A DNA stretch of 64,000 nt, from contig CAZLJQ010000004.1 of the NCBI GenBank assembly GCA_964559875.1, forward strand, positions 5,820-69,819. Direction: 5' to 3'. The stretch comes from an uncultured Acidobacteriaceae bacterium (GTDB lineage: Bacteria; Acidobacteriota; Terriglobia; Terriglobales; Acidobacteriaceae). The notes below the pieces were generated by a model. It had not been told where the DNA came from. It did not search any database and saw only the letters and a program-made list of their open reading frames with translations. Positions 9,613-43,148 of the stretch are shown piece after piece (within the stretch, counting starts at the first letter, position 1; every line of letters begins with the position of its first letter). The translations under genes were made by a program, and so were the position numbers.

Positions 9613-9621
9613 CAATTCGCC

Positions 9622-26654: not shown

Positions 26655-26659
26655 GGCAC

Positions 26660-27166
26660 CTACTTCGCTGCCGCGCTGGCAGAGTGCGGCGGTGTGCTGG
26701 GGGTGGCGTGAGTGAGGCCATAGACCGTTCCAACGGCGATTCCCGCGGCTGCGACGGCCCCGAGCTTGATGACAAGCGACCTGTATTGATGCTGCTTGAC
26801 GGGCGCGATTGCGTTTCCGGCCGGGCGTGATGCGCCGCCTCCAGCGGTTTTCACCTGTTCAGCGGCGGCGGCGCCAAGCGGTTGCTGTTCTCCGGTTTGA
26901 GCAGGTTGAGAAGACTGCTTCGCCGGGGCTGCGGTGGCAGCGGGCTGCGGCGCGTCTGGCAGTGGGACTGTGCTTGGCTGCGAGTTGGCAGGGGGCGATC
27001 CACTGGGCTGCAAGGGACCGGCGGACGGATCGACGGAAACGCCGGACGTGGATTGCTGCTGCGGAGCGATCTGCTGAAACGGTTGGGCGGTTAAGTTGCC
27101 GGAGAACAGCAGCGCAACAACCAACAATGGGACTCCGAGACCGGTGGATCGTTGTTTCATCTTCAC
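26660..27166 (-). CDS. Secreted Pro/Gln/Ala-rich protein with a C-terminal hydrophobic segment (hypothetical)
   Basis: GAGGAG RBS, signal peptide (GLGVPLLVVALLFSGNLTAQP), a low-complexity P/Q/A/S region and a C-terminal LGAVAAAGIAVGTVYGL helix. Confidence 0.5.
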   Translation of the reverse strand: MKMKQRSTGLGVPLLVVALLFSGNLTAQPFQQIAPQQQSTSGVSVDPSAGPLQPSGSPPANSQPSTVPLPDAPQPAATAAPAKQSSQPAQTGEQQPLGAAAAEQVKTAGGGASRPAGNAIAPVKQHQYRSLVIKLGAVAAAGIAVGTVYGLTHATPSTPPHSASAAAK

Positions 27167-27204: not shown

Positions 27205-27963
27205 CTACTTTGAGTCTCCAACGACTTTCCCGGCGCGCACTGGGTTCATGCGGCCGTCGAGTGACGGGGCCCCGGATGCGTGAGACAGGCGGCGCAAGAC
27301 GCGGCTAACATCGGCGTCGCGGTCATAAAACAGGTTGCGCAGGCGGTTCTGTCCGTAGCGCCACAGGTTGGGCAGATTCGTCTCGTACCAGCATGAGCGC
27401 GGCATCTGGGAGGAAAATCCGCAGAAGATCCGGAACTGATGGCCGAACATGCCTGGGCTGGCAAGCAGCGCAGCGGTAAGTCGGTGATTTCCTTCCAGAA
27501 TGGTGACCGGATTGTGCTCATCGACCCCGATGAGTAGTACCGCACTCTGGTCGTGCTCATTCCGCAAGCGGTAGCTCAAGGCCTGTATGCGGGAGATAAA
27601 CTCGCGCTTGACGCCGGAAAACCTCACCGTGCGAATGCGGTTCACAATGTCGCGAAGCAGGAAACTTTCGCCTGCAATCTTGCGCCACTGGGCACGCGGA
27701 AATACTCTGACGAAGCTGAGATCGCCAGATTCGAGTTCCACCTCCCACCACTGGGTATCGTCGGGCACCTCGCGCCACATGTGTCCGCGGCGGCGAAAGA
27801 GCAGGGCACGGCGCAAGGCGTTCTCATCCTCATTGCCAAGGTCTGCCTCAAGCACCAGGCGTTCAAAGCTATTGCGATCCGCTTGAAACTCCTCGTGGTA
27901 AAACTCGTTCTTCAGGAATTCGGCAATGACTTCGGCCTCAGTGGCCCGTCTTAGCTTCTTCAT
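27205..27963 (-). CDS. Hypothetical protein with a ParB/Srx-like GxHR motif
   Basis: The ATG at 27963 overlaps the upstream stop (ATGA). The upstream in-frame extension to 28128 would lie inside the permease gene. The motif PVTILEGNHRLTAALL resembles the DGhHR core of ParB-like nuclease/sulfiredoxin folds. Confidence 0.6.
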   Translation of the reverse strand: MKKLRRATEAEVIAEFLKNEFYHEEFQADRNSFERLVLEADLGNEDENALRRALLFRRRGHMWREVPDDTQWWEVELESGDLSFVRVFPRAQWRKIAGESFLLRDIVNRIRTVRFSGVKREFISRIQALSYRLRNEHDQSAVLLIGVDEHNPVTILEGNHRLTAALLASPGMFGHQFRIFCGFSSQMPRSCWYETNLPNLWRYGQNRLRNLFYDRDADVSRVLRRLSHASGAPSLDGRMNPVRAGKVVGDSK

Positions 27964-29273
27964 GCTGCCTCCTGACCCAGACCCGGAACACGGCGAAAAA
28001 AAGGAATCGAAACAGCCACGAGCAACAGGCCACGGAGCACCTGCTGAACAATAATTACCTGCATCAGTGAGGCATGAAAGAAGGAGACAGTGAGAACGAT
28101 GAGCAGGCTCACCACCAGTTGCAGCCATCCAGTGTTGGCAATGCGTCGCGACATTTCGTAGGTGATCAACACGACGCAGACGGCATAGACAGCAGTGGCA
28201 ACTGCATTCATGGCCAGCAAATGCTCCACGCCGGCGCCGACCGGATGAAAGTCGCTGCCGAAGAGGGTGCGAATGACCAAGCCGGGAAAGCTGGCGAGAA
28301 AGACCACGAAGACGGTGGAGAGTCCGGCAACGAATAAGAGAGGTACGACCAGCACGCGGCGGCTGTCGCTCTCCGCCTGGCTGCCGGCCGAAACGGGAAA
28401 CATGGCACTGGTTACCGACCAGGTCGCAAAGTACAACAGGCGTCCGACCAGCGCGACGGCAGCATAGATGCCCGCTTCGCTGGGTGCGAAATAATGTTTA
28501 ACCATTAGTATGTCGACGTTGTTTATGATGACTTGGCCGACAAAAAAGATGATGGCCTGAATACCTTCCAATAGCGAGCCGGGCTTGTAGAGCGCGGGAG
28601 CCTGGCGCAGTTCACGGTCGTCCGTGGGAAGCAGGAAGGCGGCAAAGACGGAGAGCGATATTGCGCCGACCGCCCCCATCACTCCGAAACCTCCCATTAC
28701 AAGCACCATCGCTGCGATGAGCTTTACGAAGGCTTCGGCAGCCAGGTTAAGGCTGAGGCGAAGGAAGCGGCAGGTCCCTTGCATGCCGCCGCGGCGCACG
28801 CCGAGCGGTATGTAAAAAAGCATACCGAGGCCGAGCAGCACCACCAGCGTGGAAGAAGGCATTCGCAGGTAGGCGGCGATCCAGTTTCTGGCGCCAACAA
28901 AAAACGCCGCCAGCAGGAAGCCGGTTAGCCATGCGCGATGCATGAGGTATTGGTAGACTGCAGCGCGCTCGTCCGGAGGAGTCGTTTTGGCAATCAGCTT
29001 TGCAGTGACAAGCTGGTACGCGAGGTTAATGCAGGAGGCCAGCATGAGCAGCGTGACGGCAGCCGCAGCCTGGCTGAAATCTCCTGGACCGAGCAAGTGC
29101 GCGACCCCGATGTTGTAGCCAAAGTTGGCCAGCGACACAAGAACAGAACCGGCCAGCATGACAACGCCACCGGTAAACACCTTGCCCTCTGAGCCACCTG
29201 ACCTCAGAGTCTCGATTGCGGTGCGCATCCGAGATTGCGGCCAGGAGCCCAATGTCTGTTCGCGAACGCTCAC
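27960..29273 (-). CDS. PST/MOP-family polysaccharide transporter (Wzx/PelG-like)
   Basis: About 12 predicted TM helices and the typical flippase segment SEAGIYAAVALVGRLLYFATWSVTSAMFPV. Confidence 0.7.
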   Translation of the reverse strand: MSVREQTLGSWPQSRMRTAIETLRSGGSEGKVFTGGVVMLAGSVLVSLANFGYNIGVAHLLGPGDFSQAAAAVTLLMLASCINLAYQLVTAKLIAKTTPPDERAAVYQYLMHRAWLTGFLLAAFFVGARNWIAAYLRMPSSTLVVLLGLGMLFYIPLGVRRGGMQGTCRFLRLSLNLAAEAFVKLIAAMVLVMGGFGVMGAVGAISLSVFAAFLLPTDDRELRQAPALYKPGSLLEGIQAIIFFVGQVIINNVDILMVKHYFAPSEAGIYAAVALVGRLLYFATWSVTSAMFPVSAGSQAESDSRRVLVVPLLFVAGLSTVFVVFLASFPGLVIRTLFGSDFHPVGAGVEHLLAMNAVATAVYAVCVVLITYEMSRRIANTGWLQLVVSLLIVLTVSFFHASLMQVIIVQQVLRGLLLVAVSIPFFRRVPGLGQEAA

Positions 29274-29668
29274 GCCGCCTTCCTTTCGCCATTTCCAGCC
29301 GCCACCGGAGTAGAGCGGAACTGGCGGACCATGTTGGGGAGATATCCACTGAAGCTGTGCGCCGCCTCGGCAGAGCTGGCAAAGATTTCAAAGAGCCTGC
29401 TCGCCCGGGTTAAATCCAATACGATCTGCGCCTGCGGACTCAGCGAAGCCAGCTTCAAATCGCCATCCCGGCGCGAGGCCTCCTTCATGCACTGAAGCAG
29501 CATGTCCACTCCGGCGGCATCGATCCTGCGCACCAGCGAAAGGTCGAAGACGATCTGAGGACGGTCATGCTCCAACAGCGGCTTTACTTCTTCCAGAAAG
29601 GCCCGGGCTTGCTTCAGGTTCAGGTTCTCTGGAACGCGCTTTACGATCACAGGTCTACTCGTTTCCAT
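29270..29668 (-). CDS. STAS-domain protein (anti-sigma-antagonist fold)
   Basis: GGGAGG RBS 4 nt before the ATG at 29668. STAS core: IVFDLSLVRRIDAAGVDMLLQC...LKLASLSPQAQIVLDLTRASRLFEIF. The Ser that is normally phosphorylated (DSSG) is replaced here, giving DAAG. Confidence 0.75.
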   Translation of the reverse strand: METSRPVIVKRVPENLNLKQARAFLEEVKPLLEHDRPQIVFDLSLVRRIDAAGVDMLLQCMKEASRRDGDLKLASLSPQAQIVLDLTRASRLFEIFASSAEAAHSFSGYLPNMVRQFRSTPVAAGNGERKAA

Positions 29669-30863
29669 ATCGCCTCCCGGCGGCCATTTCTCTATAAGAC
29701 TTTGTCTGTGACTCGACCGGCGCCAGAGCGGCATCGGGCATAGCCGAGATTTGTGACATTGCCTCGGACGGGGAACCCAAATTGGTTTCCGTTCTGGAAC
29801 CAAAGATCAACCTCCAACCAATCGTTGGCAGGAGATTGATCAGCCAGCTAAGCCCTGCGATAAGACGTACAGAAATATCAGTAGTGGTCGCACCAATCAG
29901 GTGCGGATCTTCGATGTTGACGGTCAGCTCCCGCGGCACGCTATGCACCTGGCGGAATCCCACGATGGAATGTTCCACATCCAGGCCTGCGCCAACCCGA
30001 GTGAATGGCATCACGTTGGAGTTTTCAATCACGGTGGCACAATCGACCTCGGAGTGATGCTCCAAAGAACTGCCGCGAGTAATCACCGCGTCGCGCCGCA
30101 CGCTGCAGTAATCTCCGATGAAGGCCGGGGCAACCACGCGCGCACAACGATGAACATGTGCGCCTCGGCCGATCCACACACCGGGACGCAGTTCGCGGCC
30201 ACAAGGATGAATCTCGCATTCGCCGGCAAAAGCATCCAGGCTGAGGGCACGCAGATCAGCCGGAGTGGCCAGCAGGTTTACATAGCCATCGCAGTAGTGC
30301 ACGGCAGTGGCAATGCGCTCGTCGCGTAGTTCGCCGCGCAGGAGGGCTGCGGCCTCGGTCTGGTTGCCGGAGGAGATCACAAAGACATCGAGCGCCTCAT
30401 TGGCCGGCGAATAGGCCCTCAAGATGGCAGAGCCCGAATCCCGGTGCTGGTTCACCATGGCGGCGAAATCCACCTCAGCCCAAGCGCCAAGGCGTAACAC
30501 CAGGACACGCTCCGAATGACGGCTCAGGCGGCGGAACTTCTGCAAGGCATCGTCCCAAAAGTGCTGCGGGCTAGCAACGCTGAACTTACAGGTGACAGAC
30601 TTGGGATGCGGCAAAGGATCGGTATCACTGACAACCGTTATCTCGGCCACGCCAGCGGCGCGGATGCGATCCAGCGTACGCATGAGCACGCTACGCCCCA
30701 ACACGTCGAGCAGCGCCAGGGGATATTCGCCAAAACGCTCGGCTTCCTGCCTGCCGCCGACCAGCACCAAAGCATGAACTCCAGCAAGGCCACGTGACGC
30801 GGGAGCAACGCGATGAAGAGCTCCGGATCGAAGTTTGCGCGCTCCTAGGCCCATGGATACCAC
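29655..30863 (-). CDS. Nucleotidyltransferase-like protein with a left-handed beta-helix domain (degenerate active-site loop)
   Basis: Rossmann-like N-terminus (ALVLVGGRQEAERFGEYPLALLDVLGRSVLMRTLDRI), an LbH hexapeptide region (GVWIGRGAHVHRCARVVAPAFIGDYCSVRRDAVI) and a C-terminal hydrophobic helix (LIAGLSWLINLLPTIGWRLIFG). Confidence 0.6.
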   Translation of the reverse strand: MVSMGLGARKLRSGALHRVAPASRGLAGVHALVLVGGRQEAERFGEYPLALLDVLGRSVLMRTLDRIRAAGVAEITVVSDTDPLPHPKSVTCKFSVASPQHFWDDALQKFRRLSRHSERVLVLRLGAWAEVDFAAMVNQHRDSGSAILRAYSPANEALDVFVISSGNQTEAAALLRGELRDERIATAVHYCDGYVNLLATPADLRALSLDAFAGECEIHPCGRELRPGVWIGRGAHVHRCARVVAPAFIGDYCSVRRDAVITRGSSLEHHSEVDCATVIENSNVMPFTRVGAGLDVEHSIVGFRQVHSVPRELTVNIEDPHLIGATTTDISVRLIAGLSWLINLLPTIGWRLIFGSRTETNLGSPSEAMSQISAMPDAALAPVESQTKSYREMAAGRRYGNE

Positions 30864-32095
30864 CTAGGCGCAGTGGCGCGGAAGATCGCCGAACGAAGCG
30901 GGACCCATCCTGGCAGCCTTCGGAAGCGCGTAAAGGGCTGCAGCGCCCGATGTCCCTGCTGCGTGCTGAAGGAGCGCAGATACTGACTGATGATCATTGG
31001 CATGGTTTGACGCAAAGCGACGGAAAAGTTTGCCTCGCCCATCTCGCGCTGTATCGCCGGACTTTCTAAAACGCTCACAATGCAATCGGCCATACTGTGT
31101 GCGTTGCCGGTTTCAAAGAAACTGATCGCGAGTTGCTCGTCGGCGCTCATCTCGCGGAAGTCGGCGATATCGGCGCAAACGATAGGCAAGCCGTATTCGC
31201 AAGCCATGTGAGCAACGCCGCTAGAGCCGGTGGCGGAAGAGTAAGGCATCACCATCAGGCTGGACGAGGCACAGAGTTCGTAAACGTCCTCCTCCGCGAC
31301 GTAGCCTGTGAAGCGAATATTAGGGTTGTCGGCATAACGCTCGGCAATCCGCTCGACGTAGCCCGGAGCAGCCGGATGATTGCCGCCTGCAATGACCAGA
31401 CGCGCCAGAGGAACGCGCTCCACGATCTCCGCAAAGGCCTCGATCAGCAACTCTAGCCGTTTGTAGGTACCCCACTTGCCAAAAGCAAGGATGCGATGTT
31501 CAGGGTTGCCGCGCTTTTCAAACGCAGGCGGCTCGGGCCGTGCCGAGAGAATGCCATGAGCACGAAAATGGACATTATCACCGTTGTACTTTTGCATCAG
31601 CGTGCGGCGATAAGCGGGCAACAGCACGGAAATCGAGTTGGCCATCAAGAGTGCGCGCGTGGCCAAGTATCCCGCGGCGCGGTAGCTGCGCGGATAGCGA
31701 ATACCGGCATGTTGAAGATCCACGTTGTCCATCAGATGGTGCAGGGTGACGTGGGTGTAAGTCCCTGACAACCTAGTCAGTACCGGGATAGTCAGTCCGG
31801 CGAAGGCGGCCGCGGGCTTGGCCCCGAAGGTGGAGAACAACAGATTGAACCAGACCACGTCAGGCTTTAGCTCGCGAATCACGCGCAACAGGCGCACAGG
31901 GTTGCCGAGACTATTGAAGTCCCAGCAGCGGATTACCTCGAATTCATCCATCTCTGGCTGGACAGTCTCCAGAGTATCGCCGAGGATGGTAAGGCTCAGC
32001 AGCGGGTCGCTCTGCAGTTCGCGAGCGATATGGAATCCGTATTCGTTGAGCCCCCGCCGCGAAGGCGGGAACGCTGTCACCAGACAAATCTTCAT
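30845..32095 (-). CDS. GT4-family (GT-B) glycosyltransferase
   Basis: MKICLVTAFPPSRRGLNEYG N-terminus and a Glycos_transf_1-type C-terminal half (RLVIAGGNHP...SSATGSSGVAHMACEYGLPIV). Confidence 0.85.
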   Translation of the reverse strand: MKICLVTAFPPSRRGLNEYGFHIARELQSDPLLSLTILGDTLETVQPEMDEFEVIRCWDFNSLGNPVRLLRVIRELKPDVVWFNLLFSTFGAKPAAAFAGLTIPVLTRLSGTYTHVTLHHLMDNVDLQHAGIRYPRSYRAAGYLATRALLMANSISVLLPAYRRTLMQKYNGDNVHFRAHGILSARPEPPAFEKRGNPEHRILAFGKWGTYKRLELLIEAFAEIVERVPLARLVIAGGNHPAAPGYVERIAERYADNPNIRFTGYVAEEDVYELCASSSLMVMPYSSATGSSGVAHMACEYGLPIVCADIADFREMSADEQLAISFFETGNAHSMADCIVSVLESPAIQREMGEANFSVALRQTMPMIISQYLRSFSTQQGHRALQPFTRFRRLPGWVPLRSAIFRATAPRWYPWA

Positions 32096-32109: not shown

Positions 32110-35100
32110 CTAAAACAACGTCAGACGAACTACCGGACGCAGTATCGTCTGGTTGTGGCCAGTAAAATTAAAGTAGTTCGCGTTCTGAACTCCGAGGGAG
32201 AACCGGATCGGATATTCCACCGGCACTCGCCCGAAGCTGTCGCTTACATCGCGACGCAGCGGTCTGGTGTAAGAGATGAGAAAACTGCTCTGCACGTTGT
32301 CATAGTCGTGAATTCCTTCCCCTCGCGAGAAAATAAAATCGCCGTATGCGCCCCAACGTCTTGTGGGTTTCCATTCAACCTCCGTCTCGGGACAGAAGGC
32401 CTGTGCAATCCAGTAGTTCAAGTCTTGTACGCGCCACGACCGTATATATGTGCCCAGCACGGCGAGGCGCAGCTTTTCACTGAACTCATGCTGCAGCCCG
32501 GCCGAGGTCGAGGTGGAATAGAACTCGCGGATCAGGGGGCGGAAGAGCAGATCGCGCGAGCTGTAGGCGGTGATGAACTGCGTGCGTCCCCACGGACGGC
32601 CAACGATGAACTGCAGGCGTGCGCCCAACTCTCGCGAATGCAGGTTCTGGTCGGTGAATGGGCCGGTCTCATGGAAGGCTTCCGCCTGTACCGTAAGCCA
32701 GTTTCCGAGCGCATTTGTGGACATGTAGGCAAACTGCCGGAAGAGGTTCTGATTGAGTTCGACCGGGCTCTCCTTGTCGCGCCGCAGGGTGAATTGCAGA
32801 CCGGTATTGAACGTGATTGTGGCCGAGCCGAGTTTGAGCACAGGGTTAAGCGCACTGTTAGCCGTGTAATCCCACGTGTCGCGATTGATGATGAGCTCTT
32901 CGCTGGGCAGTGAAATCTGGCCGGTAGCATTGCGTACCTGGAAGAATCCGCTGACTCCGGGATACTTGCCGAGTCCGGCACGATAGCCATTGGTCCACAG
33001 AGTTTCGAGCGAGGAGCGGGGCGGCGGGATAGCCCCTCCCTGTGCGTTGTGAAAAATCTGACGGTCGAGGCCCAAGATGGTAGCGTCATCAATGATGCCG
33101 TGCACCAGAACATCGGAATTGACGCTAACCCTGCGGCTCACCTGCACACCCTGCTCTCCGGCTGCCTGTACCATAGCGAACTCGGCCGAGTCGTCTTCGC
33201 CGCCGAGCTGATTGGCGCGCGCAAAAGCCGTCATGGCCTGGAATTGCTGGTGTTCCTGACGGTAAACATTGGCCTGCGCCATGGTGTAGTCGAAGTTGTT
33301 CGCAAACTCCGCCGGGTTGCCCAACTTCGCAAGCTGGTTCTGGGCCTCTGCGGTGCGGCCTTCAGCGATGGCTGAGTTCGCCATGCCGATGGTCACAACT
33401 TCATCGGCAGCGCCTGCCTGGTGTGCGCGCTCGTAGTAACGCCGCGCAAGATCGAAGTCGTCCATGGCGAGAAAGAGATTCGCGGCTTCGAGGAAGTTGT
33501 CGCTGTTGACCGGGGAAGCTTCTCCAACCCGCGATTCAGCAAAGGCCAACGCAATCTGTTGCTGCGCCGCCTCATACTTGTGCTGCTTGACGAAGACGCG
33601 CGCGAAGAGCAGACGGGCGTCAACGCGGTTGGCATCCGGAGCCTCCAGCGCGCGAGCAAAACGCTGCATGGCCGCTCCCTCATCGCCCATGGTCAGCAGC
33701 GCGGTGCCGGTGTTGAGCAGGATGGACGATGTGTTCGGGCTTTGCTTTTCTGCCGCAGCGATATAACGCATGGCCGCGTCGCGGTGATGCAACTCGGCGT
33801 GAGCGTTGGCAAGCTGAGCGTAAATCTCAGGGTCATCGGGCGAGATGGCGAGCGCTGCATTCAGAGTCTGGATGGCAGCGGGATAGCGGCGCGAGTGAAA
33901 TTGAGTGTCGGCCAACGCCAATTGGAGCTTCAGATTGTCAGGTGCATACTTGATCGCCGCGATGTACTCCTGCTCTGCCTTATCGAGCAAATGCAGGTCG
34001 CGATACGCGGTAGCGCGCGCAAGATGAGTGGCGCCAGATTCGCCAAGCAGCTTCTCGGCTTCGCCGGTTTCCTCCAGGGCGGCTCGACCGTGGTGTAGTT
34101 GCAACTCGGAGAAAGCCAAGCCAAGGTGGGCGACGCCATTGGAAGACTGCATCGCAAGCGCCGAGCGGAAGTCGCGCATCGCGGCGTCTGGGTTCTGCAG
34201 ATCGTTAAGCACGTAGCCACGGTTTACGTAACCCTCCACCATCTTTGGATCGCGCCGTATGGCTTCGGTATAGTCCTCAACCGCCTGCTGCAGAAGCTGG
34301 TTCTGCTTGTGCACGTGGCCGGTGAGCAAGGGAAAGTTGGCCTCGTTTGGCAACAGTGCTGTGTAATGGGATGTTAGGGTGAGCACGTCGTCAAAGCGCC
34401 CGAGGTTGTACAAATCGTATGCCAGATAGACGGCCGCATTGCGGTCGTTTTGCAACTGGGACAGCACCTGGTAGCCAAGGCGTGCCGACTCGGCGTACTT
34501 GCCCTGATGAAACAGAACTCGCTCACGTTCGCGCATCACGCGGGGATCGTCGAGCAGACTTCCGGTGGCACGGTCCACCCAGCTACCGGCATCGCTGATG
34601 CGGCCTGCCTCGAGGGCGGCATTGGCTGCGTTGGCTATGACCACGGCATTGCGTGGTGCACGCTTGAATGCCTGCTCGTAGGAGGCGTTGGCACGATCGA
34701 ATTGCCTAGCCGACGCAAAAAGGTCGCCCAGCGCGAGATACGGCACATAGTCATCCGGATAATCGGCAGCCATTTGCTGGAAGTAGCGCTCGGCGGAGGC
34801 GGTGTCGTTTTGCTCGCGCGCGATGTATCCCATTGCTTCCAGGGCGTAGCGATTCTTCGGGTCGGTTTCGAGAATCTGGGCGTAGAGCTTGCGCGCCTCG
34901 TCGCTCCGCTTGGCGTGCCAGAGCAGATTCGCGTATTGCAGAGTGATGGCGGGATTGCCTGGGTCCAGACGCATGGCTTCCTTCAGATCGCTCTCTGCTC
35001 CGTCCAGATCGTTGACCCCCAGACGTATGGAGGCACGCACACGCAAGAACTCCGCGCGAGGAGCGCCTTCGAGATGCAATTGATTGACCAAGGTCTCGGC

Positions 35101-36300
35101 AGATGCGATTTGCTGCTTCGCTGCCGCTTCATCGCCCGTCTCGTGGTAGATTTCCGCAAGATTCAATCGCAGCTCAATCGGGTAGAGCGGCCCCTCAGGC
35201 ACCTCAGCATTGGGCAAGCTGGCAATCGCGGCTTGGTACTCGCGGATCGCATCCGGATTGCGGTTCTGCATGTGGGCAAGCTGCGCGTTGAGCGCATGCA
35301 GCCGGTAGTGATTGGGATCGATCTGCGTGGCGCGGGCGAGAAACGCGCGCGCGCCGTCCATCTCTCCCAGATGCAGCTCTGCCTGTGCCGCGCTCAACTG
35401 CAACCCGATCTGCCGTGGCAAAAGGTTGGCCGCACGTTTGTAGCTTTCTGCAGCCAGCCGCTGATCTCCAGCAAGTTCGTAAGTGTAAGCAAGATCGGCC
35501 AGCACCTCGGGATTCTGCCCGGATGCATTCTTGAGCGCCGCAATCGCTGCTGGGTAGTCGTGCTGCTCGCGGTAGAAATTTGCGACGGCGCGGAAGACCG
35601 ACGGGTTCTTTGGGTCGTGGCTTTTCGCCCGCTCCAACATCTGCCGAGCGCGCTCGGGTTGCTTCAGCTTTAGATAGGCAACAGCCAGCATCACTTCGGC
35701 ATGCGACGTAGGATGCACCGACTCGGCGCGTGCAAGCAGCGCAATGCCCTGCTGCACGTCACCGCTCTGCAGGAAGAGCTCACCTGCCATCAGCAGATCG
35801 TTCTCGCGTTGCGGCGCGGCACTTATGACCTGCATAAAGAGCCGCCGGGCGTCGCTTAGCTGTCCCATGCGCTGATACGTCTGAGCCAAACCGCTAAGTC
35901 CATCCAGATTGTTGCGCTCGATCTTCAATCCCTGCTGGTATGCATCCACTGACTTGGGAAATTGGCCTGCTAGCCGGGAAGCATAGCCCAAAAGAAACCA
36001 GAGCCGGGCGTTCTGCGGCGCAGCCTTCACCGCCCGCTCGGCAGCCACAGCTGCGCCTGCGGAGTTGCCTCGCTTCAAATCGTCTTCGGCAGCACGGGCG
36101 TTACGCCCCACTTCAATGCTCGTACCCCAGCCCATTCCTTCTGTGGCGGGCTTCTTCGAGTTCTTTGAACCATTTTGTGAACCGCTCCCCAGGTCTATCT
36201 CTTGCGCGCAGAGGAGCAGCGGCAAGAACAACAGAAAGCAAAGCGAGCTGGTGACCAACAGATTTTTTTTCACTGGGCTACTCAAAATTGCCACGCTCAT
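32110..36300 (-). CDS. Giant TPR-repeat protein with a predicted C-terminal outer-membrane beta-barrel (BcsC/PgaA/PelB-like exporter scaffold)
   Basis: Signal peptide (LCFLLFLPLLLCAQE) and roughly 950 aa of TPR units. The last roughly 430 aa show an alternating amphipathic strand pattern and end in the OMP-type terminal Phe (RPVVRLTLF). Confidence 0.8.
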   Translation of the reverse strand: MSVAILSSPVKKNLLVTSSLCFLLFLPLLLCAQEIDLGSGSQNGSKNSKKPATEGMGWGTSIEVGRNARAAEDDLKRGNSAGAAVAAERAVKAAPQNARLWFLLGYASRLAGQFPKSVDAYQQGLKIERNNLDGLSGLAQTYQRMGQLSDARRLFMQVISAAPQRENDLLMAGELFLQSGDVQQGIALLARAESVHPTSHAEVMLAVAYLKLKQPERARQMLERAKSHDPKNPSVFRAVANFYREQHDYPAAIAALKNASGQNPEVLADLAYTYELAGDQRLAAESYKRAANLLPRQIGLQLSAAQAELHLGEMDGARAFLARATQIDPNHYRLHALNAQLAHMQNRNPDAIREYQAAIASLPNAEVPEGPLYPIELRLNLAEIYHETGDEAAAKQQIASAETLVNQLHLEGAPRAEFLRVRASIRLGVNDLDGAESDLKEAMRLDPGNPAITLQYANLLWHAKRSDEARKLYAQILETDPKNRYALEAMGYIAREQNDTASAERYFQQMAADYPDDYVPYLALGDLFASARQFDRANASYEQAFKRAPRNAVVIANAANAALEAGRISDAGSWVDRATGSLLDDPRVMRERERVLFHQGKYAESARLGYQVLSQLQNDRNAAVYLAYDLYNLGRFDDVLTLTSHYTALLPNEANFPLLTGHVHKQNQLLQQAVEDYTEAIRRDPKMVEGYVNRGYVLNDLQNPDAAMRDFRSALAMQSSNGVAHLGLAFSELQLHHGRAALEETGEAEKLLGESGATHLARATAYRDLHLLDKAEQEYIAAIKYAPDNLKLQLALADTQFHSRRYPAAIQTLNAALAISPDDPEIYAQLANAHAELHHRDAAMRYIAAAEKQSPNTSSILLNTGTALLTMGDEGAAMQRFARALEAPDANRVDARLLFARVFVKQHKYEAAQQQIALAFAESRVGEASPVNSDNFLEAANLFLAMDDFDLARRYYERAHQAGAADEVVTIGMANSAIAEGRTAEAQNQLAKLGNPAEFANNFDYTMAQANVYRQEHQQFQAMTAFARANQLGGEDDSAEFAMVQAAGEQGVQVSRRVSVNSDVLVHGIIDDATILGLDRQIFHNAQGGAIPPPRSSLETLWTNGYRAGLGKYPGVSGFFQVRNATGQISLPSEELIINRDTWDYTANSALNPVLKLGSATITFNTGLQFTLRRDKESPVELNQNLFRQFAYMSTNALGNWLTVQAEAFHETGPFTDQNLHSRELGARLQFIVGRPWGRTQFITAYSSRDLLFRPLIREFYSTSTSAGLQHEFSEKLRLAVLGTYIRSWRVQDLNYWIAQAFCPETEVEWKPTRRWGAYGDFIFSRGEGIHDYDNVQSSFLISYTRPLRRDVSDSFGRVPVEYPIRFSLGVQNANYFNFTGHNQTILRPVVRLTLF

Positions 36301-36495
36301 GCCGATGAAGCGAGAAACTCGAATTCATCTGCTTGGGATGCAGAGAAGCCGCAAATGGTCTTATCGCTAAGGTTGCAGAATCAGGAAACTGCGCAAGATC
36401 GCAGGAATCTGGGGCTCGCGGCAAACCTATCAGCAGCTCTGGGAATCTCACTTAATCGCGGTAAGGCGGAGACAAATCCCTTGAATTCGAAGTCC

Positions 36496-38235
36496 ATGCT
36501 TTCCTCAAGCCGTGGCATTCCACTGCTGGCGATTGTCCTGTTGGCCCTGGCGGTCCACGGCCCGTTGCTGCTGATGCAGCTTCCCGCCAACTCGTATGAT
36601 GCGACCACCCACATTTTTTTTGCGGCTCACTACGCGCACCACTGGTTCTCACCGTGGAATGAAAAATGGTTCGGTGGAATGTCGCAGACCACCTATCCCC
36701 CGCTGACCCACCAATGGATTGCGTTGTTCTCGCATTTGTTTGGGTTAACCGGCGCTTACATGTTTGTGCAGCTGATCGCGATACTTCTGCTGCCGGTAGG
36801 GATGTTTCGCTATGCGCGACTCTGGATCCCAGAGCGCGAGGCCAGCTATGCCGCGCTAGGCTCGGTTTTTCTGGGATCACTGGCGATGCTGGTCTACCAA
36901 TCCGGCCAGTTGCCCACCATCACGGCGGCGGCACTCACGTTGAACGCGTTACCCTACTTCTATCGGTGGACGCGCGATGGCGGAGCAGGCCAACTACTGA
37001 GGGGAGCTGCTATTTCCGTGGCAGGAGCCGCGGCTCATCACGTCACGTTTCTCTTCGGAGCCATTCTGTTTGCGCTGCCGGTAATCTGGCTGAGCGTGCT
37101 CGACCGCAATGAAAGTGAGCGCAAGTCATCGGCTGCAGGAATGCTGGGACGCGCGGCTGTCTTCGCCGTCATTATCCTGGTGGCAGGAATCGTAGTGCTG
37201 CTTCCCTACTTCATTGCTCTGCGCCATAACCCGATCACCCAAATACCCATTCCGCATCAGTCGCGCGACAACTACATCCTGGTGCCGCACAGCGGAATGA
37301 ACTTCTGGATCATTCCGATGGGCGCGCTGATTCTCGCCATTCCATACATCCTGTTCAAGGGGGCTGCGGAACGCCGTCTGCGGCCGCTTATGTTTGGCTG
37401 GTATTTGACTACCCTGCTCGGGCTCGGCGGAACGACGCCAGTCGGACGCTTGCTGCTGGGCCGTGCGTTTGAGGTGCTCACCTTCGAACGGTTCACCTTC
37501 TGGGCAACCCTGATGGCGCTGCCGTTTGTGGGCCTGCTCGCCGCTTGGATGATCGATCGGTGGGGGCGCCGTGGAGCGGTGCTACTCGGGATTGCCGCCA
37601 CTTATAGCTGCGCGATGGCAGTGGCATGGGTGGTCTTCAATCCGATCAACAGCGGAGACTTCCGGGTACAACAGGTGATCGACTTCCTGAACCGCGAAGA
37701 TCACGCGAAGTATCGCTACATTACGCTCGGTTTCGGCAACCAGTTTGCCAAGGTCTCCGCCTACGCCAAAGCTGGAAGTCTTGACGGAGATTACAACTCG
37801 GCACGACTGCTGCCCGAACTGACCGCCCACGGAGCCGGCCAACTCTACAACTCAAAGTACTACGGAACCGGCGGAATGGAGGCTCTGCGCGCAATCCTGA
37901 AGCACGCCGACCAGTATGGACTGCGCTACGTTTTTGTGCGCGACCGCTACTACGAGCCGCTCCTGGCCTTTGCCGGATGGCGGCAGGCGGAGGTCTATGA
38001 CAACGGCGCCACCGCACTGTGGACAAAGGACGATGTGCCCCCAGCGAAGCATTTGGACTTTGGCGCTGCCGTGCCGACCAGATGGGAGGGCATCATGTGG
38101 GGACTACTTCCAGTGGGCGCAAGCTTGTTTGCGATCTTCGTGGTTCTGCTTCCTGAGCGGCGGCGCTATTCGGAGGCAATCGAGTTCCCATCGTCATCCG
38201 ATTCGCGCGAAATCTCTTTGCGGGAGGCCCATTAG
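36496..38235 (+). CDS. GT-C fold membrane glycosyltransferase (ArnT/PMT_2-like)
   Basis: Start at the ATG at 36496 (MLSSSRGIPLLAIVLLALAV). The first periplasmic loop, SYDATTHIFFAAHYAHHWFSPWNEKWFGG...TYPPLTHQWIALFSHLFG, follows the ArnT/PMT pattern (acidic residue, aromatic stretch, then PPL-x-x-W). At least 10 TM helices are followed by a soluble domain of about 190 aa and a final TM. Confidence 0.55.
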   Translation: MLSSSRGIPLLAIVLLALAVHGPLLLMQLPANSYDATTHIFFAAHYAHHWFSPWNEKWFGGMSQTTYPPLTHQWIALFSHLFGLTGAYMFVQLIAILLLPVGMFRYARLWIPEREASYAALGSVFLGSLAMLVYQSGQLPTITAAALTLNALPYFYRWTRDGGAGQLLRGAAISVAGAAAHHVTFLFGAILFALPVIWLSVLDRNESERKSSAAGMLGRAAVFAVIILVAGIVVLLPYFIALRHNPITQIPIPHQSRDNYILVPHSGMNFWIIPMGALILAIPYILFKGAAERRLRPLMFGWYLTTLLGLGGTTPVGRLLLGRAFEVLTFERFTFWATLMALPFVGLLAAWMIDRWGRRGAVLLGIAATYSCAMAVAWVVFNPINSGDFRVQQVIDFLNREDHAKYRYITLGFGNQFAKVSAYAKAGSLDGDYNSARLLPELTAHGAGQLYNSKYYGTGGMEALRAILKHADQYGLRYVFVRDRYYEPLLAFAGWRQAEVYDNGATALWTKDDVPPAKHLDFGAAVPTRWEGIMWGLLPVGASLFAIFVVLLPERRRYSEAIEFPSSSDSREISLREAH

Positions 38236-38237
38236 CC

Positions 38238-39332
38238 ATGAACAAGATCTTGCCCGTTCTGCTTATTGTTCTCGCCATGGTGCTGGTCGCCGCCTCTACC
38301 ATACATTCCTCGACTCTCACTCCGGCCGCCACACCCCAGAGTGCGGTGGATTCGTTGCTGAACCATGTAAAGATGCGCGATGCCCCGGCGGCCTATCGTT
38401 ACGTGGCCAAGGCCGGCAATACAAGTCCGGAGGATTTTGCGCGCGACGTCTTTGGCCAAGACAGCAACCTGCGCACCTACTCCGCATTGCAGCAGTTCAA
38501 TACCAAGGTGCTGCATGAGGACGACCAGCAGGCTGTAGTGCGCGCCAGTCTGGAATGGGCCTCGGCGGTAGGCGCCGTGTATGACACACGCGACTTGAAG
38601 GTAGTGCGCGAGGACAACAGTTGGAAGGTTTTGTGGCCTGTGCAGCCACGCGCCAAGGTTCCGCCACAGGTGATTCCGGTGAACTATCTGCGCTGGGACA
38701 TTGTGACTCGCGGCGCAGATGACGACTGGGGTGCGCAAAACGTGGACGCTCCGCGGGTCCGCATCATCTCCATGAATCCGGTGGAGCACGATGGCAACTT
38801 CATTCTTCTGGGCGAGATTGAAAATGAGGACACTGTGCCGGGGTTTGTCTCCGTGGAAGCCACGCTCATCGGAAAAGACGGCCAACCGTTCGCGCAGGAA
38901 GAGAGCTTTGACAAAATCAGCCACGTGCTGCTGCCCAAAGAAATTTCTCCCTTCCGTATCGACTTTCCAAACGTGAGCCGCAGCCGCATTCAGAGCGTAC
39001 ACATGCAGCCCAATGCCATGCTGGTTCCAGCCTCGACCGACCCAGTGATGGGAGTAATTCATCAGGCTTTGCAGAAAGATGCACGGGGACACCTAGTACT
39101 GAGCGGCGAGTTGATGAACCAGAGCGGGCAAACCGTGAACATCCCGCACGTACTCGCCACGTTTTACGACAACACAGGCAAGGTCATCTGGGTATCGGAC
39201 GGTTATGTAGATCAAGCGCTGGTGCCGCAGACGCCAGTGGCCTTCAGCATCGGCGTGCGCGATGATCTCGCTCCGCAGATTCACAGCTACCGTGTCACGG
39301 TGAACCAGTACAGCCGTGACCGGGTGCAGTAA
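38238..39332 (+). CDS. Membrane-anchored protein: NTF2-like module plus two beta-sandwich repeats (hypothetical)
   Basis: 2-nt gap from the upstream stop and an N-terminal anchor (ILPVLLIVLAMVLVAAS). There is an internal duplication: NFILLGEIENEDTVPGFVSVEATLIGKDGQPF versus HLVLSGELMNQSGQTVNIPHVLATFYDNTGKVI. Confidence 0.6.
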   Translation: MNKILPVLLIVLAMVLVAASTIHSSTLTPAATPQSAVDSLLNHVKMRDAPAAYRYVAKAGNTSPEDFARDVFGQDSNLRTYSALQQFNTKVLHEDDQQAVVRASLEWASAVGAVYDTRDLKVVREDNSWKVLWPVQPRAKVPPQVIPVNYLRWDIVTRGADDDWGAQNVDAPRVRIISMNPVEHDGNFILLGEIENEDTVPGFVSVEATLIGKDGQPFAQEESFDKISHVLLPKEISPFRIDFPNVSRSRIQSVHMQPNAMLVPASTDPVMGVIHQALQKDARGHLVLSGELMNQSGQTVNIPHVLATFYDNTGKVIWVSDGYVDQALVPQTPVAFSIGVRDDLAPQIHSYRVTVNQYSRDRVQ

Positions 39333-39344
39333 CAGGAGGCGGTG

Positions 39345-40199
39345 ATGAATACACTGCGGCGAGGGTTCGTTCTCGGAGTCTTCTGCGCGGCATCGGCATT
39401 TTGTACGGCACAGCTGCGGATCTCGGTCCCGGTCGCAGCCGGAGCGGAAGTCACGTTGCAGGCACCCGGCTCGGGCAACACAACGCTTTACCTTTTCGGC
39501 CCCGGCGGTGCCAGCAAACGTTCCGTACAGCGTGGCGCGATCAAGCTCTCTAGCGACGAATTGAAGACAGCCGGACATTACACTGCAATTCTGGATGGCA
39601 GCAGCACATCGTTTTTCGTAATTGCCGCGTCTCTCGATAACGTCTCTTTTCTCGCTCATCCCTCGCGCGTTCCAACCAATACCGGTAGCGCGGTAACTGG
39701 CACGGCTTTTCTATTCGACCGCTTTCACAATCTTGTGCTCACGCCAACTCCAGTCAGCTTCCGGCTGGCTTTGGAGGAAACTTCCGGCGAGGAGCGCAGG
39801 GTAACCTCGAGGGATGGAGTTGCCTGGGTGCAGTTGAATTCAGGAAGACGCAGCGGCCCGGCGCGGTTCACTGCATCCTCCGGCGATTTGGAAGTGCGGC
39901 GAGTGGTCCAGCAGGTAGCGGCCGATCCTTGCTCTATTCGCATGAAGGCTGGGCACGCACCAGACGGCAACATCCTGGTGGAGACCGATCCCATTCGAGA
40001 CTGCTCCGGCAATGCCGTGCCTGACGGCACGATCGTTACATTCACATCGGTCGATGAGGCGGGACGCAGCACGGTGGATGCCCGCATCAAGCGCGGATTT
40101 GCGCGGGCTGAGCTACCCCCGTCTCACTCCGCTACGTTGACAGTGGCCGCCGGTGTTGTGCTGGGTAATGAAATCCACTGGGGAGGTGGCGAGCGATGA
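39345..40199 (+). CDS. Secreted protein with Ig-like (Big_1-like) repeats (hypothetical)
   Basis: AGGAGG RBS and signal peptide MNTLRRGFVLGVFCAASAFCTAQ. Segments such as DCSGNAVPDGTIVTFTSVDEAGRSTVDARIKRGFARAEL...ATLTVAAG fit bacterial Ig-like patterns. Confidence 0.55.
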   Translation: MNTLRRGFVLGVFCAASAFCTAQLRISVPVAAGAEVTLQAPGSGNTTLYLFGPGGASKRSVQRGAIKLSSDELKTAGHYTAILDGSSTSFFVIAASLDNVSFLAHPSRVPTNTGSAVTGTAFLFDRFHNLVLTPTPVSFRLALEETSGEERRVTSRDGVAWVQLNSGRRSGPARFTASSGDLEVRRVVQQVAADPCSIRMKAGHAPDGNILVETDPIRDCSGNAVPDGTIVTFTSVDEAGRSTVDARIKRGFARAELPPSHSATLTVAAGVVLGNEIHWGGGER

Positions 40200-40744
40200 A
40201 CCGCGTCCACGACTTCGCCCGCCGAAGCGGTATCTGGCTCGCCATGATTGGCTTGATCATTCTGTTCGTTCTTGCATCGATTCCGCCCTCGATGCTGGCC
40301 GCCGGGCCTCGGCTCTTACAATCCTTTGATGTATCTTCATCCGCGCCACGTGCGGTCGAACCTACTACTGCTCTCGCTATTCAGCGCGATTACGTTCACG
40401 CATGGCAATCGTTGGCCTCAGCTCTGGAAGAGAACCGCTCCGATCTGCTCGGCGAGGATTTCATTGGCGGGGCCCAGCAGCAGTGGCAGGAGGCAATTCG
40501 AGCCCAGCAGCAGAACGGTCTTAGCCGGCGCATCGTCGATCATGGACACCACGTGCGGGTCAGCTTCTACTCTCCGGATGGGTCCTCTCTTGAGGCCCTT
40601 GATACCGCCGACCTGGAGATTGAGTATCGCGAAGGCAGCCGGGTTCTATCCACTGAACACGTGCAGGCCCATTATATGGTTTTGTTTACTCCGGCAGAGA
40701 ATAGTTGGAAGGTTCGAATCCTGCAGGAACTCCCCCCGAGCTAA
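40196..40744 (+). CDS. Membrane-anchored NTF2-like protein (hypothetical)
   Basis: ATGA overlap with the upstream gene and a TM anchor (IWLAMIGLIILFVLASI). The C-terminus ...MVLFTPAENSWKVRILQ parallels ...VVREDNSWKVLWPV in the 38238 gene. Confidence 0.55.
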   Translation: MNRVHDFARRSGIWLAMIGLIILFVLASIPPSMLAAGPRLLQSFDVSSSAPRAVEPTTALAIQRDYVHAWQSLASALEENRSDLLGEDFIGGAQQQWQEAIRAQQQNGLSRRIVDHGHHVRVSFYSPDGSSLEALDTADLEIEYREGSRVLSTEHVQAHYMVLFTPAENSWKVRILQELPPS

Positions 40745-40885
40745 ATTCGCGCGGAGTGCCTGAACCAGGCAAGATTCGCAATGTGGAAGCCGACCCTACC
40801 CAACCTGTGCTGTTTCTTAGCCTAGAATAGAATAATGCTTCGGTGGTAGGCCTCAGCGCATCAAAGTACCACTGGCTTGGTGAAC

Positions 40886-43027
40886 ATGAAAATTCCAACT
40901 AGCTCGCTCGTTCTCGCCCTCCTTGTAGCTTCGGTGGCCGCATTCGCTCAGCAACCTGCGAGCGCTCCTGCGCAGGCTCAGCCGGCAAAGGTTCCGGCAA
41001 GTGCGGCCTCGCAGGCGGCACCGTCGAATGCTTCCGCCAAGAACTCACCTGCGGTGGATTCGTCAGTTCCGAACCGCGCCGATGCGTACTATCACTTCCA
41101 ACTCGGACACATTTACGAGGAGATGGTAGCTGTCACTGGGCGCGCTGAATTCGCCTCTAAAGCCGTGGATGAGTACAAGGCCGCGTTGAAGGCCGATCCG
41201 TCGTCCGCCTATCTGGCCTCTTCGCTAGCTGAGCTCTATGCGCGCACGGGAGATGTCCGCGAAGCCGTTGTGCAGGCGCAGGACGTCATCGATCGCGACC
41301 CCGACAACCTGGATGCCCGTCGGCTGCTGGGCCGCATTTATCTCCGCTCCATCGGTGACATGCAGGGAGGCACGAAGGATGATAGCGAGAAAATCCTCCA
41401 CCTCGCCATCGAGCAGTATGAACAAATTGTGCGCCTGGACCCGAGGAGTATTGAGGATCACCTCCTGCTGGGCCGCCTCTATCGTCTGAACAGCGAAACG
41501 GCCAAGGCCGAAGCCGAGTTCCGCACCGCCGTCAAGCTGCAGCCCTCGTCGGAAGACGCGGTTACCACGCTGGCGCTGCTCTATAACGAAGAGGGTGACG
41601 CCGGTCGCGCTTTGGTAATTCTGCAATCGGTGCCCGAAGCGGACCGCACGCCGCGCATCGATTCGGTGCTCGGATACACCTACGAGCAGAAAAAGGATTA
41701 CGCCCACGCCATTGATGCCTACCGCAAAGCCGTCGATCTCGATAAGGACAACCTCGACGCAGTGCGCGGACTGGCGCAAAATCTTCTCAACGATAACCAG
41801 GTTGACGCAGCGCTGGAGCAGTACAAGGCAATTGCCGAAGCCGATCCGCAGGACGCCCAGACCCTGCTGCACATCTCGGAGATTTACCGCCGTAATGGGC
41901 AGTTCGACAAGGCCCTGGAGACGCTGGATAAAGCTCAAACGGTTGTTCAGGATTCAATGGAAATCGAGTACAACCGGGCCGTCATTGAAGAGGCGATGGG
42001 TAAGTATGACGACGCCACAAAACAGCTCGATCAGCTGCTGGAGCGCACGGAGAAACCAAACGGTGCGTACTCGACCTTTGAGCGCAACAATCGCGCCATC
42101 TTCCTTGAGCGGCTCGGTACCGTGTATCGCGACCAGAATAAGACGCAGTTAGCGGTCGACACGTTCCGCAAGATGGTCCCCCTCGGCGACGACTCGGCAG
42201 CGCGCGCTTATCAGCAGATTATCGAGACCTATCGTGACGCCAAGAACTGGCCGGGAGCTACGGCTACAGCAAAAGAGGCGGTTGCAAAACTTCCCAACGA
42301 CCGGGGACTGCAAATGGTGCTCGCCGGACAGGAAGCCGACAGCGGCCAGGCTGATGCAGCAATCGCACGCGTCAAGGCGATGCTCAAGGGCAATCCCTCG
42401 GATGACCGCGAGGTCTGGATCGCACTGGCCCAGATGTACAGCCGCCTGCGCCGTTATCCGGAGGCGGAAAATGCCTTGGCAAAGGCATTGGAGTATTCCA
42501 CCAAGCAGGACGAGAAGGATTATGTCAACTTTATCGCCGGCTCGGTTTACGAACGCCAGAAGAAGTATGACGAGGCCGAGAGCTACTTCCGGAAGGTGCT
42601 TGCCTCCGATCCGAAGAGCGCAACCGCCCTCAACTACCTGGGCTACATGCTGGCAGACCGCGGAACCCGTCTCAATGAGGCGCTCGCGCTGATTCGGCGT
42701 GCGGTCACGCTCGACCCACAGAATGGCGCATATCTTGATTCGCTGGGCTGGGCTTATTTCAAGATGGGAAGATACGATCAGGCCGAAATTGAATTGCGTA
42801 AGGCCGTGGATCGCATGGACAACGACCCAACGGTACATGAGCACCTGGGCGACGTCTACCAGAAGACTAATCGCCTCCGACTCGCCGCTACCCAGTGGGA
42901 GCGATCGTTGCAGGAGTGGAAGAAGACGACGCCCGCCGAGGTTGAAGCTGCCGACGTAGCCAAAGTGCAGAAGAAATTGGATGGCGCAAAAGTGAAGCTC
43001 GCCAGGGAAGAGAGCGCCGCAAAATAG
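40886..43027 (+). CDS. Secreted TPR-repeat protein
   Basis: Signal peptide MKIPTSSLVLALLVASVAAFAQQ followed by TPR units throughout (for example ADAYYHFQLGHIYEEM and ALNYLGYMLADRGTRLNEALALIRRAVTLDPQNGAYLDSLGWAYFKMGRYDQAE). Confidence 0.8.
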   Translation: MKIPTSSLVLALLVASVAAFAQQPASAPAQAQPAKVPASAASQAAPSNASAKNSPAVDSSVPNRADAYYHFQLGHIYEEMVAVTGRAEFASKAVDEYKAALKADPSSAYLASSLAELYARTGDVREAVVQAQDVIDRDPDNLDARRLLGRIYLRSIGDMQGGTKDDSEKILHLAIEQYEQIVRLDPRSIEDHLLLGRLYRLNSETAKAEAEFRTAVKLQPSSEDAVTTLALLYNEEGDAGRALVILQSVPEADRTPRIDSVLGYTYEQKKDYAHAIDAYRKAVDLDKDNLDAVRGLAQNLLNDNQVDAALEQYKAIAEADPQDAQTLLHISEIYRRNGQFDKALETLDKAQTVVQDSMEIEYNRAVIEEAMGKYDDATKQLDQLLERTEKPNGAYSTFERNNRAIFLERLGTVYRDQNKTQLAVDTFRKMVPLGDDSAARAYQQIIETYRDAKNWPGATATAKEAVAKLPNDRGLQMVLAGQEADSGQADAAIARVKAMLKGNPSDDREVWIALAQMYSRLRRYPEAENALAKALEYSTKQDEKDYVNFIAGSVYERQKKYDEAESYFRKVLASDPKSATALNYLGYMLADRGTRLNEALALIRRAVTLDPQNGAYLDSLGWAYFKMGRYDQAEIELRKAVDRMDNDPTVHEHLGDVYQKTNRLRLAATQWERSLQEWKKTTPAEVEAADVAKVQKKLDGAKVKLAREESAAK

Positions 43028-43047
43028 GCTTGGCAACGTAGCTATTG

Positions 43048-43085
43048 AGCCGCCGGACGTAGCGATCCGGCGGCTTTCGTTTCTT
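43048..43085 (+). terminator. Intrinsic terminator after the TPR gene
   Basis: AGCCGCCGGA-CGTAGCGA-TCCGGCGGCT (perfect 10-bp stem) followed by TTCGTTTCTT. Confidence 0.75.
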
Positions 43086-43148
43086 CGCAACCCAGTGGTT
43101 TTTCCGAAGCGGCCAGAGTGGCGCCGCGCGAGGTGCTACACTTCCCCC

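Follow-up and report, generated by a model that had tools for sequence, protein, structure and literature searches.

A GT-C glycosyltransferase with periplasmic partners in Acidobacteriaceae: candidate centre of an undescribed surface polysaccharide pathway

What does a membrane glycosyltransferase make when it is encoded back to back with a putative polysaccharide exporter and in front of periplasmic proteins that belong to no familiar system? The question is raised by a 64,000-nt stretch of DNA, the window, from an uncultured Acidobacteriaceae bacterium (Terriglobales; GenBank assembly GCA_964559875.1, contig CAZLJQ010000004.1). We examined its plus-strand module at 36301-43027 together with the minus-strand neighbours. 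The five plus-strand open reading frames lie where an earlier sequence-only reading had put them. They encode a GT-C-like membrane protein of 579 aa, three proteins of 364, 285 and 182 aa that we call P2, P3 and P4, and a 716-aa TPR protein, TPR716. That reading had proposed a role in the periplasmic modification of a Pel-like polymer or of envelope proteins. Our analysis leads elsewhere: the GT-C enzyme most likely builds a surface polysaccharide at the periplasmic face of the membrane, in a pathway that has not been described, and we hold this view with moderate confidence.

The first step is the identity of the enzyme, encoded on the plus strand at 36481-38235 (584 aa from a TTG at 36481, or 579 aa from an ATG at 36496). 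Its assignment to GT-C had been made from sequence and is borne out by structure rather than by sequence-family thresholds. An AlphaFold2 model built from the homolog alignment (pLDDT 93.4, pTM 0.92) has about 13 transmembrane (TM) helices, a small periplasmic alpha/beta domain at about residues 392-528 and a last TM helix at 529-551. When the model was compared with the PDB using Foldseek, the top 33 matches were all GT-C enzymes, with probabilities of 0.97-1.0 (mostly 1.0), TMq of 0.31-0.53 and E values down to 1e-6. The GT-C matches listed include AglB, STT3, PglB, AftA, AftD, ArnT, EmbA/B/C, DPY19, ALG3 and AftB, and unrelated transporters rank only below them, at probability <0.25.

An exhaustive search of 1.8 billion representatives returned 847 relatives; for 354 the E value was 1e-30 or lower. 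The gene set comprises about 850 representative clusters at 50% identity. Conservation and family membership were scanned in 50 diverse homologs, 26-79% identical. Taken singly, 13 of the 50 match PTPS_related (PF10131), five match DUF6541 and three match PMT_2, while a profile search of the PDB with all 50 gave nothing significant; PTPS_related is a member of the Pfam GT-C clan CL0111 (PMC7801869). The acidic residue expected of the GT-C superfamily in the first extracytoplasmic loop is D35, which directly follows TM1 (helix 10-26) in the motif SYD35-x3-H-x-FF-x2-HY. D35, H39 and H45 are kept in at least 90% of the 50 homologs, and F41, P69, Q73, G137, G311, G412 and D430 are invariant. The modelled fold thus identifies the 579-aa protein as a real GT-C_A-fold glycosyltransferase of an uncurated and unstudied family. 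By analogy it would use a polyprenyl-phosphate-linked sugar donor. The gene context would suit such a donor: the GT-C gene always comes with a linked flippase, to which other phyla add a linked DPM1/ArnC-like GT2.

P2 (38238-39332, plus strand, 364 aa) begins 2 nt after the enzyme gene, as had been read (TAG-cc-ATG at 38233-38240). Its AlphaFold2 model (pLDDT 90.4) shows a TM helix or signal anchor at 4-25, an alpha+beta cone at 33-132 and two beta-sandwiches at 174-262 and 271-356. In Foldseek the cone matches PBP2a/PBP5 in their NTF2-like N-terminal domain; for the sandwiches the matches are transglutaminase barrel domains, RbmA and WxLIP. The model and these matches confirm the proposed anchored protein with an NTF2-like module and two beta-sandwiches, and weak sequence matches to DUF3426, FxLYD and Rv0361-type families are in line with them. 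Searched as a family profile against PDB sequences, P2 gave only sub-threshold matches (PBP2a N-terminal domain, E=0.14). P2 had been taken for an independent protein, a view that the fusions do not sustain. Among representative homologs of >=850 aa, 49 of 60 are fusions of GT-C with P2 (GT-C::P2). Since most other lineages carry P2 at the C-terminal end of the GT-C protein itself, we regard it as a periplasmic domain that has become detached from the enzyme's C-terminus. Such a split is consistent with the topology, since the last TM helix of the GT-C protein (529-551) follows its periplasmic domain and P2 opens with a TM helix.

The next two proteins are less easily classified. P3 (39342/39345-40199, plus strand, 285 aa) starts as had been described, with a TAA, AGGAGG and then the ATG at 39345. 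It had been called a secreted Ig-like repeat protein; the Sec signal peptide upholds secretion, and the Ig-like character finds only weak Big_1/Invasin_D3 matches in several orthologs. P4 (40196-40744, plus strand, 182 aa) overlaps P3 by the ATGA at 40196-40199, again as read. It is a small secreted or anchored alpha+beta protein. The NTF2-like fold that had been read into it stays putative, since it has no Pfam or other family match, although one ortholog touches VirB8 at E=0.0034. Family profiles of P3, of P4 and of the flippase with its 253-aa partner gave only sub-threshold matches to PDB sequences. A shared sequence module between P4 and the N-terminal part of P2 was considered and is unsupported (hhalign probability 1.7%), and an apparent P3-P4 fusion in one related locus (L032, 12843-14228) is a frameshift artefact of that metagenome-assembled genome. 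Purifying selection acts on all four genes, GT-C, P2, P3 and P4: in comparisons with four relatives, dN/dS is 0.07-0.18.

Are these genes a unit, and does the unit include the divergent arm? The window proteins were used to search 80 loci taken from Terriglobales genomes. Every one of these loci with enough flanking sequence keeps GT-C, P2, P3 and P4 in collinear order. The earlier proposal that the three downstream proteins are dedicated partners of the GT-C enzyme is supported. The genes for the outer-membrane TPR protein, the flippase and the 253-aa protein lie divergently upstream in all 80 except one, L049, in whose genome the flippase pair is located elsewhere. The loci come in two versions. 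In version A, that of the window clade, genes for a GT4, an NTP-transferase-like protein and a STAS protein stand between the outer-membrane gene and the flippase, and TPR716 follows P4. Version B is without GT4, NTP-transferase-like, STAS and TPR716 genes in the cluster, and a GH99/GH71-like hydrolase comes directly after P4; orthologs of the GT4 and the NTP-transferase-like protein lie a few kilobases away or elsewhere in the genome. In version B loci the hydrolase is in turn followed by an NTP_transf_5 gene, for an uncharacterised nucleotidyltransferase (L045:15484-16632), and then by three response-regulator genes.

TPR716 (40877-43027, plus strand) does have the TPR family matches and the signal peptide that had been claimed for it. 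Its place in the core of the operon is another matter. It occurs only in the closer, version A clade and is gone from about half of the related loci; because of this absence we do not count it as a core member. It is a clade-specific accessory, set 132 nt behind P4.

Co-conservation of the two arms was then profiled with one genome per genus across 81 genera of the family, using the non-TPR C-terminal domain of the 1396-aa outer-membrane protein as marker for the opposite arm. The GT-C gene is present in 41 of the 81 genera and the marker domain in 40, with an overlap of 40; none of the 40 genera that lack GT-C carries the marker (Fisher p = 2e-22). Co-conservation of the arms, as proposed, is thereby upheld: 40 of 41 GT-C genera carry the outer-membrane protein. 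Over the wider phylum the gene is rare, with carriers in 4 of the 201 genomes sampled, each of them in this family.

The 1396-aa protein (32110-36300, minus strand) is the proposed exporter. It matches TPR families, and its partial similarity to PgaA, BcsC and PrsT is confined to the TPR part. Its C-terminal 417 aa have no Pfam match, and the protein ends in Phe. Behind it on the minus strand come the GT4 glycosyltransferase (30845-32095; Pfam Glycos_transf_1), the NTP-transferase/left-handed-beta-helix-like protein, the STAS-domain protein (29270-29668), a 437-aa polytopic protein (27960-29273) and the cytoplasmic protein of about 253 aa (27205-27963). In the family of the 437-aa protein, 17 of 31 members match PF01943 (Polysacc_synt), the best at E=4.5e-13, and these matches assign it to the Wzx/PST flippases. 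In about 30 Terriglobales loci of version B, for example L045:3571-5580, the flippase and the 253-aa protein form a single reading frame of about 670 aa. No family match was found for the 253-aa protein, which bears a conserved GNHR motif, and a cytoplasmic domain on a flippase is unusual.

The resemblance of this arm to a Pel exporter, which the sequence-only reading had stressed, goes no further than the TPR outer-membrane protein and the GT4, and the permease is a Wzx/PST flippase. The set of PelA, PelC, PelD, PelE and PelG was not found, and the other genes are STAS and NTP-transferase/left-handed-beta-helix-like. The wider group of PgaA, BcsC, PelB and AlgK/AlgE exporters does share a very long TPR protein with a C-terminal outer-membrane-type domain, glycosyltransferases and a glycoside hydrolase. 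It differs from the present locus, which has no processive GT2 synthase, cyclic di-GMP receptor or PelA, PelC, PelD, PelE and PelG, and for which we propose periplasmic polymerisation by the GT-C enzyme. The presumed barrel domain has no detectable similarity to known TPR/barrel porins. Nor does the locus resemble a Wzx/Wzy system beyond the Wzx-type flippase, as no Wzy, Wzz or Poly_export match was found in the window or the related loci.

Outside Acidobacteriota the module is found again. GT-C::P2 fusions occur in Actinomycetota (Nakamurella, Actinoplanes, Microbacterium, Cryobacterium) and Chloroflexota (Kouleothrix, Chloroploca), all annotated as hypothetical. Nakamurella and Microbacterium share one gene order: GT4, Polysacc_synt, GT2, STAS, SpoIIE, anti-sigma-type kinase, STAS, response regulator, GT-C::P2, Ig-like and P4-like. 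Here the Ig-like protein has about 410 aa, and the P4-like protein, with a C-terminal extension, has 545-605 aa. The actinobacterial GT4 is 38-39% and the flippase 29-31% identical to their window counterparts, and the best matches of the GT2 are dolichyl-/undecaprenyl-phosphate sugar transferases, all below curated cut-offs. In Kouleothrix GT-C::P2 is followed by a P3-like protein (hhalign 98.5%, E=3e-15) and a P4-like one (97%, E=8e-11). P4 aligns to residues 69-197 of this 585-aa Kouleothrix protein, whose C-terminus is of the NEP/GEFG type in clan GH-A; in the PDB it comes closest to GH5 beta-mannanases (E=5e-6, over a short stretch). P4 is thus, judging by these alignments, a homolog of the N-terminal module of glycoside hydrolase proteins in other phyla. 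Chloroflexota shows the GT-C::P2, P3 and P4-hydrolase part of the module.

A further locus, L100, from a genome with a type IX secretion system, encodes a GT2, GT-C::P2, a P3-like protein (95%), a P4-like/glycoside hydrolase protein (69%, the hydrolase faint), a GT4, a flippase, a STAS protein and a TPR protein. The barrel domain of the 1396-aa protein has no similarity to that TPR protein, and TPR716 has only generic TPR similarity to it. Another relative, P0122 (L101:587-3610), is a GT-C::GT4 fusion of about 1010 aa; its GT4 part shares 49% identity with the minus-arm GT4, and epimerase and GT2 genes follow the fusion. Conservation of the module thus extends over at least three named phyla and a fourth lineage that is unplaced. 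GT-C, P2, P3 and P4 are not an accessory set modifying a Pel-like product, as had been suggested, but an ancient core spread across phyla, in the company of a Wzx-type flippase, GT4, STAS protein and glycoside hydrolase.

STAS genes accompany the flippase and glycosyltransferase genes in the Terriglobales, actinobacterial (L090:6023-8641, L091:7052-9636) and L100 (18144-18482) loci. By analogy, the STAS, SpoIIE and kinase genes suggest partner-switching control of glycan synthesis. SypA/SypE in Vibrio fischeri is a comparable case of such control.

How might these components work together? We suggest that synthesis starts in the cytoplasm, where the GT4 would form a lipid-linked oligosaccharide or primer, and that in other phyla a DPM1/ArnC-like GT2 would make the polyprenyl-phosphate sugar. 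The Wzx/PST-type flippase would bring the lipid-linked sugar to the periplasmic face, where Asp35 of the GT-C enzyme may serve its transfer from the polyprenyl-linked donor onto the growing glycan. P2 probably holds the acceptor chain, as the carbohydrate-binding modules (CBMs) do in Emb, AftD and GT136 enzymes. P3 and P4 would be further periplasmic subunits, P4 corresponding to the module to which other phyla attach a glycoside hydrolase. Export of the polymer would fall to the 1396-aa TPR outer-membrane protein in these diderm Terriglobales. Weak, short hydrolase matches (GH99, GH71, GH5 mannanase) weakly suggest a mannan- or glucan-type hexose polymer.

In the window, the related loci and the other phyla the module has beside it no Wzy, no polysaccharide co-polymerase (PCP) or outer-membrane polysaccharide exporter (OPX), no ABC exporter and no processive GT2 synthase, and because of this the GT-C protein is favoured as the chain-building enzyme. 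The scan of the cluster genes turned up no other polymerase or synthase. GT4, flippase, GT-C with a glycan-binding-type appendage and glycoside hydrolase recur together, with a TPR protein joining them in diderms, and the set looks like a self-contained polysaccharide pathway. That the enzyme builds chains rather than only decorating them, that the TPR protein exports, what the polymer is and what the donor is are points that we infer.

The fold matches also suggest that the substrate could be protein. On this reading the enzyme would glycosylate proteins in the manner of oligosaccharyltransferases, PMT or TMTC enzymes, perhaps P3 itself, with the TPR proteins recruiting substrates. AglB, STT3 and PglB are its best structural matches, the acidic residue lies in the first external loop as it does in these enzymes, some relatives match PMT_2, and the Ig-like secreted protein is always encoded beside the enzyme. 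In TMTC enzymes a GT-C domain is joined to TPR repeats (PMC7801869), a pairing that the locus recalls. Yet TM-scores are similar for ArnT, AftA and AftD; the translated GT-C sequence, read directly, contains no WWDYG-type or WWD motif, which sets it apart from AglB, STT3 and PglB; the periplasmic domain is a different one; and TPR716 is outside the conserved core. The hydrolase fused to the P4 module and the company of Wzx, GT4 and outer-membrane protein suit a polysaccharide better. Because a glycoside hydrolase and the outer-membrane TPR protein recur with the module, we favour polysaccharide synthesis and think protein glycosylation improbable.

A stronger competitor comes from the three-component systems, named examples of which are GtrA/GtrB/GtrC, ArnC/ArnEF/ArnT and CsbB/GtcA/YfhO. 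Here the GT-C enzyme would do no more than attach a side-chain sugar, with a flipped polyprenyl-phosphate sugar as donor, to a polysaccharide or lipoglycan that owes its backbone to other enzymes, and P2 would be the CBM for that glycan. DPM1/ArnC-like GT2, flippase and GT-C are found together in the actinobacterial and L100 loci, with the GT-C at the periplasmic face beside the flippase. This gene make-up is that of known three-component systems, one of which, the GT136 system of Citrobacter youngae, pairs a flippase of the MOP superfamily with a GT-C enzyme that bears a CBM at its C-terminus (PMC11127046). The periplasmic beta-sandwich attached to the present enzyme is comparable to the CBM of the GT136 enzyme. 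The GT2 is present in the Nakamurella, Microbacterium and L100 modules and missing from the window cluster. The present GT-C family also differs in having no Pfam membership (PTPS_related is nearest), the flippase is of the Wzx/PST type, and GT4, STAS, Ig-like and P4/glycoside-hydrolase proteins are conserved, with the TPR protein added in Terriglobales. No backbone pathway is linked: neither a backbone synthase nor a Wzy polymerase nor an ABC exporter is conserved with the module. What does accompany it is a glycoside hydrolase and, in addition, a dedicated outer-membrane TPR protein, as expected of a self-contained polymer pathway. We consider decoration unlikely, while taking it seriously.

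The occurrence of the module in monoderm Actinomycetota and Chloroflexota, with no outer-membrane exporter, fits another kind of product. The enzyme might modify a lipid or lipoglycan in the manner of ArnT or of PimE and Mpt enzymes, extending or decorating a GT4-primed membrane glycolipid to give a lipomannan-like amphiphile instead of a free exopolysaccharide. In mycobacteria the GT4 enzymes PimA/PimB, the GT2 Ppm1 and the GT-C enzymes MptA, EmbC, AftA and AftD make phosphatidylinositol mannosides, lipomannan and lipoarabinomannan (PIM/LM/LAM) and arabinan. The combination of GT4, polyprenyl-phosphate-sugar GT2, flippase and GT-C mirrors PIM/LM/LAM assembly, in which a cytoplasmic GT4 primes the chain and GT-C enzymes then build it in the periplasm from polyprenyl-phosphate sugars. 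The best fold matches include AftA and AftD, ArnT is also matched, and the mycobacterial enzymes have C-terminal carbohydrate-binding domains. On the other side, identity is only 12-16%, and the present genes form one compact operon. Their system takes in a hydrolase, an Ig-like partner and an NTF2-like domain and, in its diderm hosts among the Acidobacteriota, has an outer-membrane component as well. The Terriglobales module is locked to the outer-membrane TPR protein, which suggests release across the outer membrane, and no lipid-anchor-specific enzyme was identified. A lipoglycan product therefore seems to us very doubtful.

Several observations weigh against a GT-C-centred polysaccharide pathway and have to be set beside those for it. 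GT-C enzymes beside flippases mostly add single decorating sugars, not backbones. The 579-aa protein itself passes no Pfam or NCBIfam threshold and has no PDB sequence match in phmmer. There is no GT2 donor synthase in the window cluster, and the nearest GT2 in the genome, its best DPM1-like one, is unlinked; tried as a dedicated donor synthase, it is near-universal in the family (71 of 81 genera), does not track the module and is so uninformative. The hydrolase copy of this genome is likewise unlinked, standing beside recR and dnaX (G000:C80:2684-3682, L099). The outer-membrane barrel at the C-terminus of the 1396-aa protein is presumed, with no family match behind it, and the sole exception to the pairing of the two arms, G267, has GT-C in a 1012-aa frame (C5:23102-24739) and no barrel protein. 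The roles that P3 and P4 may have are read from context, and donor and acceptor are putative as well.

If the GT-C enzyme is a polymerase, what would be new? Current polysaccharide routes are the Wzx/Wzy, the ABC transporter, the synthase-dependent and the extracellular sucrase-type route, and the gene set fits none of the four. It had been said that the module maps to no known system, and our literature search for the family names and the gene combination agrees in that it found no description, an absence that does not prove the system undescribed. A polymerase would mean a new pathway and a new glycosyltransferase family, and part of the exopolysaccharide output of abundant, little-studied soil bacteria would be explained. 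Even if the enzyme only decorates, P2, a widespread DUF3426-/Rv0361-like anchored protein, is assigned as a detached enzyme domain, and P4 gains a role as the module carrying the hydrolase. Cultivable actinobacterial hosts for genetics are also identified (Microbacterium, Nakamurella, Actinoplanes). More tentatively, and with clearly less confidence than in the reading of the window itself, one may imagine a further general polysaccharide route, ancient in Acidobacteriota, Actinomycetota, Chloroflexota and a Fibrobacterota-Chlorobiota-Bacteroidota (FCB)-type lineage. In it a GT-C_A enzyme, whose NTF2/beta-sandwich domain can be detached and whose partners are Ig-like and hydrolase-bearing, would polymerise the chain from flipped polyprenyl sugars on the outside of the cytoplasmic membrane, diderms would add a TPR/beta-barrel porin, and STAS partner-switching would act after translation.

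The two arms diverge as the sequence-only reading had it, from a shared control region whose length it put at 195 bp; 180 nt (36301-36480) is more likely. This follows from the start of the GT-C gene, which is probably the TTG at 36481 rather than the ATG at 36496, giving 584 aa. We favour the TTG because it is invariant, with GGAG 9 nt upstream, in 12 aligned related loci; the public gene call also has 584 aa. Aligning the divergent region from these 12 loci revealed conserved islands, GGATGC near 36337, GGGAATC near 36443 and the GGAG-N9-TTG, between diverged flanks. GGATGC and GGGAATC are candidate operator or promoter elements. A sigma-70 consensus scan of 36301-36480 found no promoter, and a sigma-54-like GGCAC-N5-TGC in the intergenic consensus was rejected, its spacing being wrong and the element absent from the window. 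At the other end of the plus-strand arm the strong terminator that had been claimed corresponds to a terminator-like hairpin of 11 pairs with a T-tract at 43047-43086.

In related loci from long-read metagenome-assembled genomes (L008, L012 and L017, about 5500-9800) the 1396-aa gene lies in frame-shifted pieces, where assembly indel errors are likelier than biology. Beyond the 253-aa gene the minus-strand neighbours are a Pro-rich secreted protein and, next to it, a Tmk-like P-loop kinase (window 25950-27166 for the two). A search of the 80 related loci turned up no homolog of the kinase. The secreted protein, of 168 aa and rich in Pro, Ala and Gln, is conserved at the end of the minus arm in version A loci only.

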